A DNA stretch of 64,000 bases from Ostreococcus lucimarinus (lineage: Eukaryota): the NCBI GenBank assembly GCA_000092065.1, contig CP000600.1; one strand, given 5' to 3'. Below are positions 12,589-57,959 of the stretch, one piece after another. Within the stretch, counting starts at the first letter, position 1. Each line of letters opens with the position of its first letter. Both the position numbers and the translations under genes were made by a program. The notes below the pieces were generated by a model that was not told the DNA's origin, did no database searches, and was given only the letters and a program-made list of their open reading frames with translations.

Positions 12589-13446
12589 ATGCGTCGCGCC
12601 GTCGCGTCGTCGGCGACGACGCTCGCGCGTCGCGCGTACCGCGCCGAGGCCTCGCCCGCGGACCGCGCGAGGGCGCTCGCGCTGAGCGCGCCGCTCGGGT
12701 TCGTCGCCGGCGCGTTCGGCGCGTGCGTCGGCGTCGGCGGCGGCGCGCTGATCGCGCCCGTCGTCGCGAGCGCGGCCAAGACGGTGCCGCAGCGCGTCGT
12801 GAGCGGGACGTCGCTCGTCGCCGTCGTCGGCACGGCGAGCGCGAGCGCGGGGACGTTCGCGCGGGAGGGGCTGACGGATCACGCGGCGGCGGCGCTCCTG
12901 GGCGGCGCGGCGACGCTGAGCGCGCCGCTGGGCGCGCGAATGACGGCGAGGGTGGACTGCGCGGCGCTGCGTCGAACGCTGGCGTGGTTCTTGGCGGGCG
13001 CGGCGCCGATGGTGCCGCTGAAGGCGGTGGCGTTTCGCGCGAGGGAGAGCGGCGAGGGAGGGAAGGAAAAGTTTGACGCGGCGGCGTCGGCGCCGACGCT
13101 CGTCGCGGTGGGAGCGACGGCGGGATTCGCGAGCGGGTTGCTCGGGATCGGCGGTGGAACGCTCGTGACGCCGTTGCTGGCGCTGGTGTCGCCGTTGCCG
13201 CAAGCCGCGGTGCTCGGGACGTCGTTGTTGGCGATGCTTCCGCCGTCCGTCGTCGCGCTCGGGACGCATTATAGGATGGGAAACGTGGACCCGCGCATGG
13301 GCGCCGCGCTCGCGGTCGGCACGGCGTTGGGCGGCGCGTTCGGGAGCTCGTTCGCGGTCGACGCCCCGCGGGGGGCGCTCGAGGCGGTGTTCTTCTTCGG
13401 GATGCTGTTCCTGTCCAACAGGACTTTTCGATCGCTCAGAAAATAG
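12589..13446 (+). CDS. TauE/SafE (DUF81) family anion/sulfite exporter-like membrane protein
   Basis: ATG verified at 12589, in frame with ORF 11968-13446. Two copies of the GxxxGxGGGxL.xP motif (LGFVAGAFGACVGVGGGALIAPVV and TAGFASGLLGIGGGTLVTPLL). The N-terminus MRRAVASSATTLARRAYRAEASPADRARA is transit-peptide-like. Confidence 0.65.
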   Translation: MRRAVASSATTLARRAYRAEASPADRARALALSAPLGFVAGAFGACVGVGGGALIAPVVASAAKTVPQRVVSGTSLVAVVGTASASAGTFAREGLTDHAAAALLGGAATLSAPLGARMTARVDCAALRRTLAWFLAGAAPMVPLKAVAFRARESGEGGKEKFDAAASAPTLVAVGATAGFASGLLGIGGGTLVTPLLALVSPLPQAAVLGTSLLAMLPPSVVALGTHYRMGNVDPRMGAALAVGTALGGAFGSSFAVDAPRGALEAVFFFGMLFLSNRTFRSLRK

Positions 13447-13525
13447 CGCGAAAGAAACGTCGCGATGGTCGCGAGGTTTGGCTACTAGTCGTTGTATTGC
13501 TACCGTATAGTCGCTATTGTTTTGT

Positions 13526-15250
13526 TCAAATGTCTCCAGAGTCGCGAAACATGGCCACCGCGGCGGCGGTGGACGCGCGGCGCGCGCGGCGCGTCTCCGG
13601 CGACTTCTTCCGCGCCGTCGTCGGTTTCGGGGGCGATCCCGGCGGCGGCGGCGGCTGTTCGACGCCGGGAATGCGAGGCGGAAGACCGCCAGGCTTGGGC
13701 GCAGCGGCTGGCGAAGCGAGCGTGTTCGCCGCTTCTTCCGCCTTCCACTCCGCCATCAACTTTGCCTGCAGTTCCTCCGCGGAAGTCGGCCAACGGTGCG
13801 CTTCTTCGCGTTCTCGCTCTTCTTCTCGTTCTCGTTGCTGGCGCGCGCGCTCGTGCCGATGCGGTCGTCGTCGACTCGCGCCGTCGCCGTCGCGCCAGTT
13901 TCGATCGCCGCGCACGATTTTCTCGTCCCATTTACGCGCGTTCGCCATCTGGTACTCGTGTATCTTAATGTGCTCTTCAAGCCATTCCTCGTACTCTTCG
14001 TTCGTCTCCCGCTGCCCGGGCTGCCAACCCGGCGGCTTTTGATACACTCGTCCGGGCGTCCAAGTCTTCGACGGCACGTCGCCTTCCCAAACGCTCCGAC
14101 CACCTATGAGTCTGACGTCGTGCATCACTTCGTCAAAGTTTCCGATCAGTTCACCGAGCTTATTGAACGGCTCGGGCGCGCGCTGACGAAGTTTGAAGAA
14201 TAAATGCCCCGCCGCCGTGACGCGATCCTCGGGCATGGGCTTGACGCGGACTTCTCTCGTGACGGGATCGAAGTGCATCACACGTCCCTGATAATACTCA
14301 CCGCTCACGCCGGGCGTGGGATGGCGTAATTTGTACGCGATAAAATCCGATCTCTTGAGCGTCGTCGCAGTCGGGAACTCCCGCACTTCGTCGTCCGGCA
14401 ACTCGCTCCGGAAGACGTTGAGTTCCCACGCCCCGGCGCCGGATTCGCGAACATCTCGCCGAAACTGATCTCTCTTTGCCAAAATTCTGGCCGCATCGCT
14501 CTCCGGATCGGGCACATACGGCGTGCTGATGTGCACGTAATCCCCCGCGCGCTTTGGTTTCGGTTTCGCGTCGTAATCCGGCAAAGGCTCGGGCGCGTAC
14601 GTCGTCTTCTTCCGCCGTCTTTCCTCCGCCCGTCCCGCCTCACAGTTTTCCTCATCCGTACTATCGCTCACCACTTGTAAATCCTCCAACGTATCAAATT
14701 CTACGCGTCGTTTCGCGCGTTTATTACTCTTCCGCTTCGCGCTCCGACTCCGCTTCGTCGACGCGCCGCCGTCGTCGCCCAATCGAAGCGTCCTCGCGCC
14801 TTCCTCCTCTCCATCGCTCACCGCCGGCGCCAACGGTCGATGCTCGCTCTGGAATATCTCCCCGATCGCTCGCGGCGAGGCGCGCGCGTCCGCGCGCCTC
14901 CCCGCGTCCGCGCGTCGTCTCGCTCGCACCACGTCGTCGTCCCGCACCACGTCCCTCGCCAAGCACTCGTCCAGCAATTCGTACCCATCGATCTCCAGCC
15001 TCACCTCGGACGCGTCGAAAGCGTCCTCCGCGAGCAGACCGCGCGCGCGAAACGCGCCGGCGATGCGCGCGCGGACGTCGCGAACGAATTCACGCTCGTG
15101 GATTGGCCACAGGAAGCGCTTGAAACCGAGCGCGGTGACGCGCGCGTCGTCGCCGGCGTCCACTTCGACGCGCGCGCGCGTCGTGGACGACGGCGACGAC
15201 GCGCGCGCGAGCTCGGCGGACGCGCTCGGGACGACGGCGCGATCGGACAT
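13526..15250 (-). CDS. coilin-like Cajal-body protein
   Basis: ATG verified at 15250 (MSDRAV...). The N-terminal region resembles the coilin self-association domain (VRLEIDGYELLDECLARDVVRDDDVVRARR). A basic/NLS middle follows. The C-terminal Tudor-like segment FPTATTLKRSDFIAYKLRHPTPGVSGEYYQGRVMHFDPVTREVRVKPMPE aligns with the coilin C-terminus ([42 protein letters not shown]). Confidence 0.55.
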   Translation of the reverse strand: MSDRAVVPSASAELARASSPSSTTRARVEVDAGDDARVTALGFKRFLWPIHEREFVRDVRARIAGAFRARGLLAEDAFDASEVRLEIDGYELLDECLARDVVRDDDVVRARRRADAGRRADARASPRAIGEIFQSEHRPLAPAVSDGEEEGARTLRLGDDGGASTKRSRSAKRKSNKRAKRRVEFDTLEDLQVVSDSTDEENCEAGRAEERRRKKTTYAPEPLPDYDAKPKPKRAGDYVHISTPYVPDPESDAARILAKRDQFRRDVRESGAGAWELNVFRSELPDDEVREFPTATTLKRSDFIAYKLRHPTPGVSGEYYQGRVMHFDPVTREVRVKPMPEDRVTAAGHLFFKLRQRAPEPFNKLGELIGNFDEVMHDVRLIGGRSVWEGDVPSKTWTPGRVYQKPPGWQPGQRETNEEYEEWLEEHIKIHEYQMANARKWDEKIVRGDRNWRDGDGASRRRPHRHERARQQREREEEREREEAHRWPTSAEELQAKLMAEWKAEEAANTLASPAAAPKPGGLPPRIPGVEQPPPPPGSPPKPTTARKKSPETRRARRASTAAAVAMFRDSGDI

Positions 15251-17116: not shown

Positions 17117-17315
17117 GAGTTTTTAGCGCATCTAATTTAGCCGCGGCGCCTCAAACGCGACGCAAATTGTATTGAAAGACGACAGCATCATCATCGGCTA
17201 AATGAGCGAAATGATTTGAAACAAAATCATGGTGTGTGAACATTGCAAATTTCGTAATTCATCGTGCTGATGAGTGATATAAATGAACAGAGTAAAGCGC
17301 GCGCGTTTCAAAAAC

Positions 17316-20412: not shown

Positions 20413-22644
20413 CTATCCTATTCTAGCTAGGCACTCCGCTCGAAGCGGAGTTTCACTAAACAGCGCACCGATGAAACCGCGAACTTCGCTCGCGGTAAAA
20501 CCGACTTTCTGCAACGATCCGCGCTCCCAGCTCGTCGCGATGTCGCGAAGAGGCGCGCTGAGCATGACGCCGAGCTCTCGAACTTTTTGCCATTCCGGGC
20601 CGACGGCTCGTAAGAGCGCGCGAATCGCGTCTTCGTCGCCCTTCTTGCCCACTAACCCTTCGCTCGCGAACGCGACGCCGATAATCTCCGTCAAAGCTTC
20701 TGATTCCTCCACCGAGATGTCCTCCATGGAGAGGATTTCGAGCGTCACGCGTCTCGCGTAGTGCAGCGCCAACTCGGCCGCGTCTTGCGTTCCGATGGGA
20801 TCGGGCAAGACATACATGCTCGTCGTACCCACGCGGTGGATCACGTGTCGCGCGCGCGCGATGGATTTGACGATGTCTTCTTTCACCTGAACTTCCGCCG
20901 AGCGCAAAAACCCAGACGCGACGTCGAGCGCGGCGTGCAATTCGCGCAGCGCTCGATTATTGGCCTCCGCACGAGTAGCGTCACCTAACGCTCTCAAAGG
21001 CTCGACGGGCCAAATGAGCGCAGGCGTACGACCGATCTGTCGCTCTAACGCCACGCCGCGCGCGAACACGCTCGCGCTGAAGCGATTCGCCAGATGGTGA
21101 CAATCGTTGTAAAACACGAGCGAAGCGGCGTGAATTGTCTTCAATTGTTCTCCCCGCGCGGCGATGACGCAGGCGCGAAACAAATCTAGACAATCCGCGG
21201 CGGCGGCGGCTAAGCTCGCTGACGCCCGGTGGGCGTGCGGATCGAGCTCGGTCGCCGATTGAAGCACGTCGTCGACGTGCGCCGCGAGTAAATCCGTCGC
21301 CTTGCTCACGGTGCGGGGCGCGCCGTCGAGAAGATTGTTTGCGCCTTTCGACGTCTCAGTTTCCTCGCCCGTCCCGCGGCCTACGCCACGCGTTTTCGCA
21401 TCGCCCAAAGTTCGAACGATGGTCTGATCGTCACTCAACGCGAGCTCGCGCGCCCGCGCGAGCACCGCGGCGCGGCGCGTCTCCGCCTCGCGCATCTCCG
21501 TCGCGAGCGCCTCGGCTTCGAGCGGGCCCAAAGCGCCGCCCGCGTACGACGCCGCGCCGTCCGACGGCGGAGGCACGAATCCGCAATTCGAAGCCACGAC
21601 TTCGACCGCGCACGTTCGATCGATCGCGCGCTCGCTCGGTCGCGCGCTCAACCAAGCGTTCACGCACGTCTTCGCGATGTCTCCCCACGCCTCGACGCCG
21701 ACGGCTTTCGCGACGTCTTCGCTCGGCAACTTACTTCTGATCCACCTCAACGCCGTCTCGAGCGAGGCTTGCGCGCTGTCGTCGTCCACGCTTTTCGTCG
21801 TCGCGGTTTCGTACCGCAGCGAATCGCCGCCGTCTTCTTCGACGACTTTGACGACGCTCTTCGCCCCCGCGCGAATCATCGGCGCTAAAAACTCATCCAC
21901 CAGCGCCCTGGCCACGATGGACGTCCTCAGACGCGTCTCATCCGCGCTAATCTCCGCCAAACGCTCGCACGCGCGTCTCAACCGCGCGGCGTCGATGGAA
22001 ACCCGCGACGACCCCTCGAAGACGACGCTCGCGCTCACCTCTTCGTCCACGACGCGTCGAACGCGCTCGACGACGCGCTCGCACGTCGCTCGCGCCTCGT
22101 CGTCCACGCCCCGATCGTCGTCGCTCTCCGCGTCTTCCTCCTCCGCCTCGCCGCGCAGGATCACGTTCGCCGCGCTCGCCGCCCTCGCCGCTTCGCCGAG
22201 ATTCATCGTCCCGAGCGCGTCCTCCGCGTCCCGCTCCCGCGCCTTCGCGCTCGCCCTCTCCCGCGCCGTCCTCCGCGCCCGCGCCGCGTCTTCCCGCGCC
22301 GCCGCCGCCTCTTCCCACGCCCTCGCGCTTCTCGCGCACGCCTCGATCGCGTCGATCGCCGCCTCGCTCGCCCCGCTCGCGCGCGCGTCCCGCGCGAGCG
22401 CCTCCGCGTCGCGCCGCGCGTCTCCCGCCGCGTCCTCGGCGCGTCGTCCTCGCCGCGTCTCGCGCGCGCGCGCCGCGATCGCCAGCAGCGCGCGTCCGCG
22501 TCGCGCGTTCGCCGCGTCGCTCGCGTCGCGCGCGACCGCGTCGCACGCGCGCGCGACGTCGACGAGCGCGACGCGCGCGCCGTCGTCGCCGCGCGATTCC
22601 GCGAGCGCCGTCGCGGCGTCGTCGACGGTCGTCCAGCGCGGCAT
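20413..22644 (-). CDS. ZW10: ZW10 (Dsl1/RZZ complex) homolog
   Basis: C-terminus AIRALLRAVGPEWQKVRELGVMLSAPLRDIATSWERGSLQKVGFTASEVRGFIGALFSETPLRAECLARIG aligns with the ZW10 C-terminus (...[31 protein letters not shown]). Internal AASLVFYNDCHHLANRF resembles ZW10 AAIHHNNCMYIAHHL; N-terminal coiled-coil region. The track start 22800 is GTG; ATG at 22644. Confidence 0.6.
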   Translation of the reverse strand: MPRWTTVDDAATALAESRGDDGARVALVDVARACDAVARDASDAANARRGRALLAIAARARETRRGRRAEDAAGDARRDAEALARDARASGASEAAIDAIEACARSARAWEEAAAAREDAARARRTARERASAKARERDAEDALGTMNLGEAARAASAANVILRGEAEEEDAESDDDRGVDDEARATCERVVERVRRVVDEEVSASVVFEGSSRVSIDAARLRRACERLAEISADETRLRTSIVARALVDEFLAPMIRAGAKSVVKVVEEDGGDSLRYETATTKSVDDDSAQASLETALRWIRSKLPSEDVAKAVGVEAWGDIAKTCVNAWLSARPSERAIDRTCAVEVVASNCGFVPPPSDGAASYAGGALGPLEAEALATEMREAETRRAAVLARARELALSDDQTIVRTLGDAKTRGVGRGTGEETETSKGANNLLDGAPRTVSKATDLLAAHVDDVLQSATELDPHAHRASASLAAAAADCLDLFRACVIAARGEQLKTIHAASLVFYNDCHHLANRFSASVFARGVALERQIGRTPALIWPVEPLRALGDATRAEANNRALRELHAALDVASGFLRSAEVQVKEDIVKSIARARHVIHRVGTTSMYVLPDPIGTQDAAELALHYARRVTLEILSMEDISVEESEALTEIIGVAFASEGLVGKKGDEDAIRALLRAVGPEWQKVRELGVMLSAPLRDIATSWERGSLQKVGFTASEVRGFIGALFSETPLRAECLARIG

Positions 22645-22891
22645 GTCGGACCCGGACGTCGACGCGATTCGCGCGACGTCGCGGCGATCGCGCGCGACGC
22701 CGCGCGTCGCGAAGCGTCGACGAGCGCCGTCGCGCGAATCGACGGCGAATGCGCGTGGTGGGTATTCACGGACAATCGGGTATGCAGTCCAGTTATACAC
22801 ATAATATATATTTATGACACACTCGACCGCGATGTACCGACGTTATGTATACGAAAAAGGCACGGCGACGACGCGCGCCGCGAGTCCGTGA

Positions 22892-23542
22892 TTATACGTC
22901 GACTTTTGCGGGCGCCTGTTGGACGTAGATGACTTGCGGCTGCTGCGGCCGCGTCGCCACGGCGGTGGCGATGAGCTGGTCGCGTCGGTACGCGAAGCAC
23001 CCGCACCGCCCACAGTAGCAGCACGAGACGATGAGCAACGTCAGGCCGACGACGGTACCAATGATGATGCCCGCGATCGCGCCACCGTCTGGTTTACAGC
23101 AGTCGTCACCGCAGCATACGTTTTGGCCGCCCGTGTACATACTGCACCATTTACCGCCTTTTTTGTGGAGTGGTGGGCACCCGTGGGCGCCGTCCCAGCA
23201 TTTGGCTCCATTGGCAACTTCCGTGGCGATTTCTGTTCCACACGAGGTGTAACTGGAAATTGTGTCCGTACACTTGGACGGGCACGATTGGTCGATCGAG
23301 TTGCCATACGGTGGCGGTCCCGCGCTGCACCCGAAACAGTCTGAGCACACACTGACCGTCACGCCGTTGTAGGTCCCGGTGTTGTAACAGAACTCTTCGC
23401 TCGATGCCCAGGGGTTCGCGCTCGCGTAGCCGCTCGAAACAACGCAGTCGGTGTGGGTTGAACACGTGTCGCCCGCGTCCGCGCGCGCGGTGTGCGCGAC
23501 GGCGAGGCCGAAAACGAACGGTACGAGGAGGTTCTTAAACAT
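22892..23542 (-). CDS. cysteine-rich type I membrane protein (signal peptide, Cys-rich ectodomain, single TM, short tail)
   Basis: ATG at 23542. MFKNLLVPFVFGLAVAHTARA signal peptide; ~130-aa ectodomain with more than 20 Cys; TM AIAGIIIGTVVGLTLLIVSCCYC near the C-terminus; Gln-Pro tail. Confidence 0.5.
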   Translation of the reverse strand: MFKNLLVPFVFGLAVAHTARADAGDTCSTHTDCVVSSGYASANPWASSEEFCYNTGTYNGVTVSVCSDCFGCSAGPPPYGNSIDQSCPSKCTDTISSYTSCGTEIATEVANGAKCWDGAHGCPPLHKKGGKWCSMYTGGQNVCCGDDCCKPDGGAIAGIIIGTVVGLTLLIVSCCYCGRCGCFAYRRDQLIATAVATRPQQPQVIYVQQAPAKVDV

Positions 23543-23739
23543 CTTTGGCGTGGGTTTATCTCGCAAAAGGATTTCAGCGAGGCTTGAGGTGCGCCGCAAA
23601 GTGAGGCCCGGAGATCCGGGGATCCTCCGCAGCCCCGCGGGCGTGTGTGTGCCTGGCGTGTGCCCTTCGCGGTCGGTCGGACGAGGGGCCCGTTGGCGCC
23701 CCGCGGGTTTGTGTGCCAGCCCCAGGGTTTAGGGGTTAG

Positions 23740-24420
23740 GATCGGACATATGGAAACTCACTAATTAGCCGCATGACCTCATACATTAAGTTATTTATAT
23801 CTAGTCATCGCGCGAAATGGCGTGGGTAAATTACCGTACAGTAATTTACCCCCGGAACCGCTTGCGACTTGCGACAGATGGTGTATTGTATGCGATTGTA
23901 TTACAATATATTTTTATATATTTGGATATGCTTTAATAGATATTAAATATCATACGACATACGTGAATGATAAAAAGTTGCTTCACGGATGCGTGCCATG
24001 TGAAGGCTGGACCTCCAGTCCGAGGTGGATGACCATGAATCATGAACCGTGAACAGTAGAGTCGCACCTTTTCTCTACACACGATTCGTCTCTCATTCAT
24101 TGTAAGGAGTAGGCAAAGCTTCGCGCCTCATATAGCAGGAGGACATCCAGTCTGCGGGCGGTGACCAGGCTAATGCCTCCTTAGCATGTCGCCTGACTCC
24201 TGGCGCTATGTGTGTTGTCAATTCGTTCAAATCACTAGTACATTTCGGTGTGTCGAACTCATCACGCGTGTCACTTTTTTTTTCCACCAACACGCAGAAG
24301 GCACATACAGGGTTTAGTGGATCTACTCTGTCTGAGACGACTCTGCATTGGAGACCCACATTGAAGAGCTTATCCTCGTTTAATTTCTTGCACACTTTGT
24401 TGAATGCCTCGACCATTTGT
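23740..24420. other. AT-rich compositional island (~40% GC within a ~68% GC background)
   Basis: Direct read: runs such as tatttttatatatttggatatgctttaatagatattaaatatcatacg. Includes the palindrome at 23824-23851 and is flanked at 23706-23727 by a telomere-like motif. It overlaps the 3' half of ORF 24093-24740. Confidence 0.85.
23824..23851. repeat. 28-bp near-perfect palindrome gggtaaattac cgtaca gtaatttaccc (11-bp perfect arms)
   Basis: Arms gggtaaattac and gtaatttaccc are exact reverse complements around a GTAC core; read directly. Confidence 0.9.
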
Positions 24421-24740
24421 GGCGGCGGCCACCTGACGTCCTCGACGCCGGCGCCACAGCATATAGGAAGCCTGGGCCACCCCCCCATGGCCTTCAGTGC
24501 GCCGTTCAAGATATCCACAATCTCGGTCGCCAGCGGTGAGTTTTTCGACCAATCTGAGTCACGGGGACGCGCGGGGGCGGTCGTGGTGCCGTGGTGTACG
24601 TTCCACACGGGGTCTCCCGTCAGCAGGGGACTGTTGAACCATTGGCGCGCGCGATCGCCCTTCCATGAAGTGACGTCACAGCGAAGAACCGCGAGCAGGT
24701 CGGCGTGATAGTACGTTGGGGTGCTCTGCGCACAACCCAT
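24093..24740 (-). CDS. hypothetical protein with N-terminal MGCxxS myristoylation/palmitoylation motif
   Basis: ATG verified at 24740 (MGCAQSTPTYY...). The 215-codon frame stays open through ~330 bp of AT-rich sequence, which is unlikely by chance at 40% GC. No recognisable domain. An opposite-strand ORF 24208-24708 is also open. Confidence 0.4.
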   Translation of the reverse strand: MGCAQSTPTYYHADLLAVLRCDVTSWKGDRARQWFNSPLLTGDPVWNVHHGTTTAPARPRDSDWSKNSPLATEIVDILNGALKAMGGWPRLPICCGAGVEDVRWPPPQMVEAFNKVCKKLNEDKLFNVGLQCRVVSDRVDPLNPVCAFCVLVEKKSDTRDEFDTPKCTSDLNELTTHIAPGVRRHAKEALAWSPPADWMSSCYMRREALPTPYNE

Positions 24741-25227
24741 GGCGCGCGTCGTCGTGACGTGCGATCGAGATCGAGACCCCGGCCCGTTCGCGCGGCGATG
24801 GATCCGGCGGGACGTGATATTTTTACCGTAGGGGTCATGACTCGTCGTTCGGAGTACGCTGTGCTATTTACGCACGATCGATCGATCGACGCGCGTGGTA
24901 ATACTAATACGCGTACGTTAAATACGAGTCACCGCGCGTCGCACGCCTAAAGAAAGACCCGCGCCGAATCCGATTCGACGCGCGCGGCGACGACGCGTCG
25001 CCACGTCAGCGCCGCGCGACGCGTCGCCACACCGCGACGATTCGCGCGTCGCGCGCGCCGTGTCTTCGCGACATAACGCGTCGCGCGTCGAAGAACGTCG
25101 ACACGACGCGTCGATCGACGCGCGGCGCGCGCGGCGCGACGCGACGATCGCGTGCGGAGGCGCGGCGAGCGGATAACGCGACGACGGGGACGCGCGAAAA
25201 AGCGACGCAAAAAGCGACGCGCGAGCG

Positions 25228-25674
25228 ATGGAGGCGCGAATGCGCGCGACGCGCGCGCGAACGGACGACGCGCGGAGCGATGGGGTGGCGAGGAACGATT
25301 CGTACTACGCGAGCGCGTATAACGCGCCGCGGGCGAGCGAGGGAGGTTCGGACGCGCGACGGGGCGACGCGCGCGCGAGGTGGGGTTTGCGCGGCTTCGT
25401 GCCGCCGGCGCACTTGCGCGTGGATGGGTACGCGTACGAGGGGGCGGAGGACAGCGCGAGCGGGAGCGCGAGGAGGAAGATGTTCGTGGCGCCGAGGACG
25501 ATCGAGGAGCACGAGGTGATGTTCGTGAACGACGGGATGGGCGGGGACGCGGACGAGCGCGAGCACGGCGTCGCGGTGACGCGCGAGGACGCGCTCGCGC
25601 GGCGCGTGACGGGGAACATGAGCAGTCGGCCGAGTTGGACGGCGATGCACGCGTGCGGGGACATCGCGGTGTGA
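25228..25674 (+). CDS. hypothetical protein (148 aa), ATG verified
   Basis: ATG at 25228; Arg/Asp/Ala-rich; no domain recognised. Followed by the hairpin at 25739-25774. Confidence 0.25.
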   Translation: MEARMRATRARTDDARSDGVARNDSYYASAYNAPRASEGGSDARRGDARARWGLRGFVPPAHLRVDGYAYEGAEDSASGSARRKMFVAPRTIEEHEVMFVNDGMGGDADEREHGVAVTREDALARRVTGNMSSRPSWTAMHACGDIAV

Positions 25675-42458: not shown

Positions 42459-42559
42459 ATTATTCATCATCAAACGTAACTTCATGTTGTAGATTAGGAT
42501 ATTATAGAGAAAGTTCGTACAAGTGGTTAATACAATACAAACGGCATAATTCGACAACG

Positions 42560-57894: not shown

Positions 57895-57959
57895 CAAGTT
57901 TCTTGAATGAATGTAATTTACAAAAGAATCGATGAATGGATGCTTGTGATCGTGCGTTG

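Follow-up and report, generated by a model that had tools for sequence, protein, structure and literature searches.

A palindromic repeat with telomere-like boxes beside an AT-rich gene tail: the probable make-up of a low-GC island in Ostreococcus lucimarinus

Ostreococcus comprises the smallest free-living eukaryotes. Here we analyse 64,000 nucleotides of Ostreococcus lucimarinus DNA (GenBank assembly GCA_000092065.1, contig CP000600.1; hereafter the window, with positions counted from its first letter) and in particular an AT-rich island at 23740–24420, which covers the 3′ half of one minus-strand gene, termed gene B, and part of the spacer that leads to the next, termed gene A. A first-pass annotation had taken the island for possible prasinovirus DNA, with a remnant of a transposon or MITE (miniature inverted-repeat transposable element) and a short centromere-like element as alternatives. 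Our analysis suggests that the island is probably a composite, in which three adjoining AT-rich pieces sum to one 0.7-kb trough: the coding tail of gene B, the 3′ flank of gene B, and a copy of a dispersed repeat. The repeat is probably the relic of a fold-back (MITE-like) element that now acts as promoter and 5′ leader of gene A.

Both genes at the locus match O. lucimarinus proteins, gene A exactly (Table 1), while the open reading frame (ORF) of gene B falls in a 90%-identity cluster with XP_001422751.1 of O. lucimarinus CCE9901. They stand in a 20-kb run of genes in the order LUC7, WD40, Rad4, rhodanese, amino-acid kinase, gene B, gene A, ZW10, TIM, SHMT and Arf, and the same order is present in at least ten long metagenome contigs at 96.5–99.9% nucleotide identity. 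The protein matches and the common gene order therefore indicate that the window is ordinary nuclear DNA of this green picoalga. Between the stop codon of gene B (24093) and the ATG of gene A (23542) lies a gap of 550 bp. Rfam returned nothing relevant, with E values up to 10 allowed for 22500–25500 and the gathering score applied to the whole window, nor did ARAGORN, and among the local ORFs Pfam matched only the domains of the neighbouring ZW10. A 76-aa ORF in the spacer (23822–24052) had no Pfam match and was taken as spurious. Contigs and loci that were retrieved for comparison with the window carry the labels L002 to L086.

Table 1. Features of the locus, with positions in the window
Feature	Position	Strand	Description and basis
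Gene A	22892–23542	-	216 aa, signal peptide, many cysteines, one transmembrane segment; exact XP_001422750.1
Dispersed repeat copy	about 23580–23855	-	Palindrome, AT-rich arm, telomere-like boxes, GC-rich Z boxes, leader
Leader module	23582–23631	-	Contains ...CTCACTTTGCGGCGCACCTCAAGC...; common to a subset of repeat copies
GC-rich Z boxes	23632–23717	-	CACAAACCCGCGGGGCGCCAACGGGCCCC at 23686–23717, second copy at 23632–23653, CTCGTCCGACCGACCG between
Telomere-like (telo-box-like) boxes	23721–23740	-	CCTAACCCCTAAACCCTGGGG in gene A sense; from sequence; family consensus CCTAAACCCTAAACCCTA
AT-rich arm	23741–23820	-	TATA-like TTAATGTATG inside, ends in TCCATATGTCCGAT; nhmmer profile match
Central palindrome	23821–23854	.	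Perfect core 23824–23851; inverted-repeat search and fold
Gene B 3′ flank	23856–24092	-	AT-rich
AT-rich spacer	23856–24033	-	Putative gene B 3′ untranslated/terminator region; 39% GC, with the core of the trough (27% GC) at 23900–23999
Y box	24034–24056	-	CTGTTCACGGTTCATGATTCATG, close to the stop codon of gene B on its 3′ side
Gene B	24093–24740	-	215 aa, starts MGC; ORF; XP_001422751.1 / A4SBC3 cluster
Gene B coding tail	24093–24420	-	Right half of island
T9 run (A9 in coding sense)	24275–24283	-	GAA AAA AAA AGT = E-K-K-S; sequence, inside gene B coding sequence
Module U	24804–24857	.	Dispersed intergenic module; 94% identity over 54 nt to L036 1031–1084

The island has 44.2% GC against 63.1% for the whole window, and no other 681-bp stretch goes lower (minimum 0.442 at 23724; 1st percentile 0.499). 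The trough is real, then, although the earlier figures of about 40% within about 68% GC were somewhat overstated. At a scale of 100 bp there are eight dips below 40% GC within the 64 kb, with that of the island the deepest (22%) and widest. The description of the island as isolated is therefore valid only at a scale of 0.3–0.7 kb and not at 100 bp, where the seven other, smaller dips appear. On a crude coding map of the whole window, gaps between convergent 3′ ends have 32–41% GC (for example 17117–17282, 42459–42559 and 57895–57959) and gaps between divergent 5′ ends 68–79% GC. The gap between gene B and gene A fits this rule, being AT-rich near the 3′ end of gene B (23856–24035, 39% GC) and GC-rich toward the 5′ end of gene A (23543–23720, 68% GC).

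The right half of the island is coding sequence. As the first-pass annotation had noticed, an ORF runs into the trough; it is gene B, which has homologues in 66 clusters, most of them full-length at 36–47% identity. The invariant and near-invariant residues of this family lie at positions 86–215 (G86–E215), which is the part encoded by the AT-rich segment, and they include the motifs GGWP, KVCKK.N..KLF.MGLQCR, V.VEK, WSPP..WM and P.NE. The poly-T run that had been listed as a feature of the island is a T9 run that codes on the minus strand for the invariant V-E-K-K-S, with V150, V152, E153 and K154 invariant in the homologue alignment. In this alignment conservation is strongest over the C-terminal half of gene B, and the family is a cellular one of the Mamiellales, the order of green algae to which Ostreococcus belongs. 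The product is small and probably N-acylated, and belongs to a multi-copy, Mamiellales-specific family of about 50% GC. In a relative the gene adjoins those for Exo70 and peptide deformylase. Within gene B the GC content at third codon positions (GC3) drops sharply, being 0.745 over the 5′ half and 0.42 over the 3′ half, compared with 0.75–0.81 in neighbouring genes. The gradient recurs in the closest relative, L016, and is absent from more distant paralogues, which have about 50% GC throughout, and the low-GC tail is therefore read as an inherited trait of the gene family and not as foreign sequence grafted onto the ORF. One possible cause of such a drop within a gene is GC-biased gene conversion that starts at the 5′ end.

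In addition, several smaller observations concern gene B. Three relatives (L012, L016 and L017) carry A8 in place of the A9 run, which gives a frameshift, and a G run is likewise altered in L016 and L017; these copies contain either homopolymer assembly errors or frameshift-prone or pseudogene sequence. Directly 5′ of the ATG, at 24741–24790, stands a leader of the form (TCTCGA)n-CACGTCAC-ACGA that is conserved at the nucleotide level across the family. It is also found at 350–386 of L086, a 46% GC contig assigned to another Mamiellales lineage by composition alone, and in over-extended gene calls it surfaces as an in-frame peptide, SISISRHVTTK.

The middle piece of the island, the 3′ flank of gene B, is specific to the lineage at 23856–23985, and among the fetched loci the spacer is matched only in L016, up to 23986. 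The Y box that follows the stop codon occurs in relatives a second time, about 130 nt upstream of the gene (L012 at 371 and 1281, L018 at 251 and 1166, L016 at 668 and 1450).

The left piece of the island belongs to a dispersed repeat. The first clue was that contigs with gene B relatives carry pieces of the window's downstream spacer upstream of their genes, one of which contains both the palindrome and the telomere-like motif. To collect the family, metagenomes were scanned with the exact 19-mer TCCATATGYCCGAYYYTAA, which returned 64 loci; about 30 of these share 70–94% identity over 110–290 bp with 23666–23855 of the window. The family consensus runs, in order, from the palindrome CCCGGGGGTAAATTACTGTACAGTAATTTACCCCCGGG through an arm of about 85 nt with TTAATATATG, then GGCTAAATAGTGAGGCTCCATATGTCCGAT, CCTAAACCCTAAACCCTA and GGGGCTGGCACACACACCCGCGGGGCGCCAACGGGCCCCTCGTCCGACCGACCG. 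A profile built without the copy in the window matches 23665–23859 on the minus strand (nhmmer E=3.6e-57) and does not extend over the AT-rich spacer. The telomere-like border motif of the first-pass annotation is present as GGGTTTAGGGGTTAGG at 23725–23740, where GGGTTTAGGG occurs once in 64 kb against 0.02 expected. Since the profile match spans both this border and the palindrome, the two are parts of one repeat unit. The Z boxes form a direct repeat and are conserved across the family, and the leader module is matched at 76–97% in L021, L036, L059, L043, L046, L065 and L072. No other copy was found within the 64 kb by profile or sequence comparison.

Some members of the family are full fold-backs. 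Locus L012 carries a fold-back of about 200 bp, with arms at 29–60/203–234 and 73–108/155–190 around the central palindrome, and full fold-backs are also present in L078 and L070. In the spacer of the window nothing but the palindrome is matched by the profile on the opposite strand, and the copy keeps the palindrome and about 13 nt of the second arm. A 14-nt direct repeat, GAC[G/C]CTAAACCCTA, flanks the element in L012 and is the only candidate target duplication seen. In the window a 13-nt direct repeat, CAGGGTTTAG(G/T)GG at 23723 and 24308, was considered as a target-site duplication and rejected, because the copy at 24308 falls within the coding part of gene B and the length of the repeat is, by our estimate, near that expected by chance for 1.2 kb. 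The family is dispersed, non-coding and multi-copy (about 30 loci, at least 14 gene contexts), as is expected of MITE and fold-back elements. Of the earlier suggestion of a transposon or MITE remnant, what survives is about 280 bp (23580–23855), a one-armed copy of a fold-back family; it does not apply to the rest of the island. The literature searched on Ostreococcus MITEs, telo-boxes and the motif strings contained no description of the repeat family.

One further copy is informative about the host. In L035 the repeat adjoins genes for the exact O. lucimarinus proteins XP_001420871 and XP_001420875, and the family is therefore dispersed within O. lucimarinus too, at two loci or more. We read L035 as part of a different chromosome from the different accession series of its proteins. 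Its lowest-GC 681-bp stretch (42%) likewise adjoins the repeat. At 12800–14400 of the contig, the truncated palindrome of this copy is bordered by an AT-rich stretch with internal repeats, which is followed by DNA-methyltransferase-like ORFs with a DPPY motif and a weak match to the C5-methylase family PF00145; this stretch could be foreign or mobile DNA.

The 28-bp palindrome itself is as first described, with GGGTAAATTAC (23824–23834) and GTAATTTACCC (23841–23851) on either side of CGTACA. It extends to 17+17 nt at 88% complementarity and folds as DNA at -10.3 kcal/mol (z = -2.5); by our own estimate, an 11-bp perfect inverted repeat with a loop of at most 6 nt is expected about 0.001 times per 680 bp. 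Across 15 copies and 16 pairs, 84.6% of cells are paired, and half of the pairs (8/16) have changed on both sides, for example GCGCTTAGATTAC/GTAATCTAAGCGC in L046. The covariation score is 0.198, compared with 0.086 for shuffles, and none of 500 shuffles reaches the observed value. This covariation indicates that the symmetry of the palindrome is kept or regenerated, either through selection for a hairpin or cruciform or through repeated fold-back copying. In addition, four independent copies (L021, L027, L035, L065) are cut within 2 nt of its centre, and the palindrome may be a fragile or recombinogenic boundary.

The repeat is strictly oriented with respect to genes. Gene A is the gene at which the window copy points; 213 nt separate its ATG from the TCCATATG box. 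Distinct contexts with sufficient flank number at least 14, and in every one of them the first sizeable ORF past the Z boxes is on the same strand and starts 118–351 nt from that box. The sense bias is not an artefact of the search, because the retrieval pattern was blind to strand. The downstream genes are unrelated and mostly orphan: besides gene A they include two types of gene B paralogue, a metallothionein-like 52-aa peptide, a DUF285 surface-type protein, a DUF305 protein and several without a Pfam match. In most copies a TATA-like box lies at a fixed position, -31 from the TCCATATG box.

The simplest reading of this layout is that the repeat is a portable core promoter and 5′ leader, in which the telomere-like boxes would be telo-box-like in position. 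We propose that it supplies these parts to gene A in the order palindrome, AT-rich arm with TATA-like box, TCCATATGTCCGAT, telomere-like boxes, Z boxes and leader. Transcription would start about 25–30 nt past the TATA-like box, which would place the telomere-like and Z boxes in the 5′ untranslated region (UTR). The repeat would have spread as, or would descend from, a non-autonomous fold-back element, and in this lineage a gene B unit (about 23865–24803) would have been joined to the gene A unit at the palindrome. In five loci (L043, L046, L065, L072, L059), the first 20 codons (MMSTREKKTRTRAVRIRGAD) are common to two downstream ORFs that are otherwise unrelated; the cassette may therefore reach into an upstream ORF or a first coding segment. 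MMETSP-extended proteins gave no guide to the transcript 5′ end: the contig that matches them, L086 (46% GC), contains no repeat, and the long 'ORF' upstream in it crosses another gene on the reverse strand.

Several points weigh against a fold-back relic turned promoter and leader. The promoter role is read from position, orientation and the TATA-like box alone, and the downstream ORFs are mechanical calls, although seven of the ten that were looked up exist as predicted proteins. Retrieval with an exact 19-mer means that the conservation of that box is by construction and that the copy number is a lower bound. The copy in the window is one-armed. As to a putative mobility of the repeat, there is a single candidate target duplication, and the structural variants beside the repeat (L036 compared with the window, L067 and L008) include no clean empty site. 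Palindrome covariation could stem from repeated fold-back copying and not from selection. Finally, this reading does not account for the low GC3 (0.42) in the tail of gene B.

In an alternative account, the repeat is a functionless, decayed fold-back or MITE relic in an intergenic spacer, and its upstream position reflects insertion preference or survival in gene-poor gaps. A dispersed family with inverted arms, non-coding full-length fold-backs and many truncated copies is what such an account would predict, and the flanks of the loci share other dispersed AT-rich modules as well. Against it stand the sense orientation to the next ORF in every distinct context and the fixed distance and TATA-like position. 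Furthermore, the arm and Z boxes are 80–94% alike while the sequence past the palindrome is unrelated, and the island is nearly invariant in the population. We therefore regard a functionless relic as unlikely, and consider a relic that now serves as promoter and leader the probable explanation.

Comparison with other loci suggests how the island came together. Between the palindrome and the gene A ATG, L063 matches the window at 94% identity, whereas its sequence upstream of the palindrome is unrelated. Module U, which also occurs in L043, L065, L081 and L039, is found in L036 immediately beside the palindrome and a partial second arm; relative to this arrangement, some 940 bp (spacer, gene B and short leader) separate palindrome and module U in the window. 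The closest gene B relatives, L016 and L017 (84–88% nucleotide identity), have different neighbours on both sides. The island is thus a lineage-specific junction of two accessory-gene units at the repeat. In the population the locus is fixed, with 99–99.9% identity across 13 metagenome copies, all of which carry the island, with two variable sites in it; the patchy presence expected of a viral insert is not observed.

L002, L005 and L008 carry a Z-box indel of about 16 bp, at about 23649–23665. In L008 (11185–11814), compared with 22892–23665 of the window, gene A is represented by an allele of 75% nucleotide and 69% protein identity, while the adjacent 2 kb (23666–25666) is 99.5% identical, with the switch between alleles at the Z-box indel. 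This divergent allele suggests balancing selection on, or cassette-like replacement of, a cysteine-rich surface protein. Natural populations are also polymorphic in structure: three contigs (L008, L050, L069) diverge immediately 3′ of gene A (22883) and have other dispersed AT-rich modules there, and L067 diverges 5′ of module U (24860), where it has a module with two GGGTTTAG units, as does L036 at 1085–1180.

It is tempting to speculate that Ostreococcus has a eukaryotic 'gene cassette' system with the palindrome-bounded repeat as its junction element, in which orphan genes for surface or cysteine-rich proteins are inserted, swapped or replaced at the palindrome and Z boxes, share a portable promoter and leader that carries telomere-like boxes, and form strain-specific repertoires on ordinary chromosomes. 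The 69%-identical gene A allele within 99.5%-identical flanks, with its switch in the Z boxes, fits this idea, as do the position of the gene B unit between palindrome and module U and the methyltransferase-bearing AT-rich DNA that abuts the broken palindrome in L035. We consider so complete a system, taken as a whole, a long shot.

The island could also be a short AT-rich, palindrome-bearing centromere-like element that recruits CENH3 and occurs about once per chromosome. Such an element would account for the deepest AT trough in 64 kb and for the comparable trough at the same repeat in a second O. lucimarinus locus, apparently on another chromosome, and Ostreococcus centromeres are apparently unmapped in the literature searched. 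However, such an element would be free of expressed genes, and conserved coding sequence makes up half of the island, with the remainder adjoining the start of a gene. The repeat occurs twice within 0.25–3.4 kb on the single contigs L070, L075 and L027, and it stands in a strict sense relation to downstream ORFs. AT dips are general at 3′ flanks in the window, and the truly AT-rich core measures only some 180 bp, with 39% GC. We found no positive evidence for the centromere that had been suggested, and we judge it very improbable.

Even less probable is a telomerase-RNA-like small-RNA gene, in which a small nuclear RNA-type (type 3) promoter would be followed by telomere-template-like sequence. 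The TATA-like box with CCTAAACCCTAAACC 45–60 nt further on does resemble the 'TR-like loci' of a published screen, which reported six such loci in O. lucimarinus, none with telomerase-RNA homology, and an O. lucimarinus upstream element with the consensus CCCRTAA before the TATA box (PMC8287931). In our alignment CCCRTAA is at the expected place in 2/34 arms, neither of them an O. lucimarinus copy. In addition, the repeat has no Rfam match even at E up to 10, and it is present in many copies, each followed by a protein-coding ORF. A subtelomere or interstitial telomere array was rejected, as there are at most 2–3 units at a fixed place in the repeat and no arrays in any locus.

Least credible is the reading with which the island was first singled out, a fragment of a prasinovirus genome of about 40% GC integrated in the host chromosome: it is favoured by composition alone (44% against 63% GC), as the methyltransferase-like ORFs of L035, a gene type common in algal viruses, are at a different locus, and it is effectively excluded by five viral-contig scans and a viral fold search without a real match (IMG/VR contains no relative for either the profile of the gene B family or gene A; three repeat motifs gave 0–2 hits in viral contigs, none extending past the motif; among viral folds the gene B model found no match, with a best E of 0.25 and TM <0.3), by the conserved cellular family to which the coding half belongs, and by the fixation of the locus in 13 population copies.

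The failure of the viral-insert and centromere candidacies removes a false lead, and the island is largely ordinary. What remains is a repeat family with a symmetry-preserving palindrome and telomere-like boxes that lies upstream of, and in sense with, genes that are unrelated and mostly orphan. If the repeat is indeed a portable promoter, it would offer a compact cis-element for genetic engineering in Ostreococcus, and it would help to explain how accessory genes on ordinary chromosomes are wired and reshuffled. Overall, we view it as a modest, incremental example of repeat-derived regulatory DNA.

The repeat is best understood beside four known systems. Gene-adjacent MITEs and fold-back elements include the Tourist and Stowaway MITEs of plants and the FB elements of Drosophila. 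Like these, the repeat is short (200–350 bp), non-coding and AT-rich; its full-length members are nearly all inverted repeat, its sites are dispersed and gene-proximal, and many copies are truncated. Unlike these, no transposase partner, defined termini or consistent target-site duplication was found for it, its copies are strictly in sense with the next gene, and the copy in the window is one-armed. Its outer parts are also asymmetric, with telomere-like and Z boxes on one side and, in L012, L078 and L056, another kind of end on the other.

A second parallel concerns the telo-box. Promoters and 5′ leaders of plant genes can contain a telo-box (AAACCCTAA) that is bound by TRB-type Myb proteins. 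Similarly, the repeat places interstitial telomere units near a presumed transcription start, upstream of an ATG, in a green-lineage genome with CCCTAAA telomeres. The putative boxes of the repeat differ in that they belong to a homologous cassette of 200–300 bp copied between unrelated genes and are not an isolated motif, and in that the associated genes are mostly orphan, cysteine-rich or membrane genes and not those of the translation machinery.

Closer to the host, solo long terminal repeats (LTRs) that drive neighbouring genes have been discussed for O. tauri (PMC5082852). As with such promoters derived from transposable elements, the repeat is directional, with a TATA-like box and then a leader, and lies upstream of and in sense with host genes. 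It differs from solo LTRs in having no TG...CA ends, primer-binding site or internal region, and in having a palindrome as its boundary and some members that are fold-backs. Finally, the low-GC accessory compartment of Mamiellales consists of the big and small outlier chromosomes (PMC13390643, PMC5082852). Like them, the locus described here is poorer in GC than the core genome, contains repeats and orphan genes, and varies in structure from strain to strain, but it does so as a 2-kb patch in an ordinary 63% GC region, away from any outlier chromosome and amid the housekeeping genes ZW10, TIM, SHMT and Rad4.

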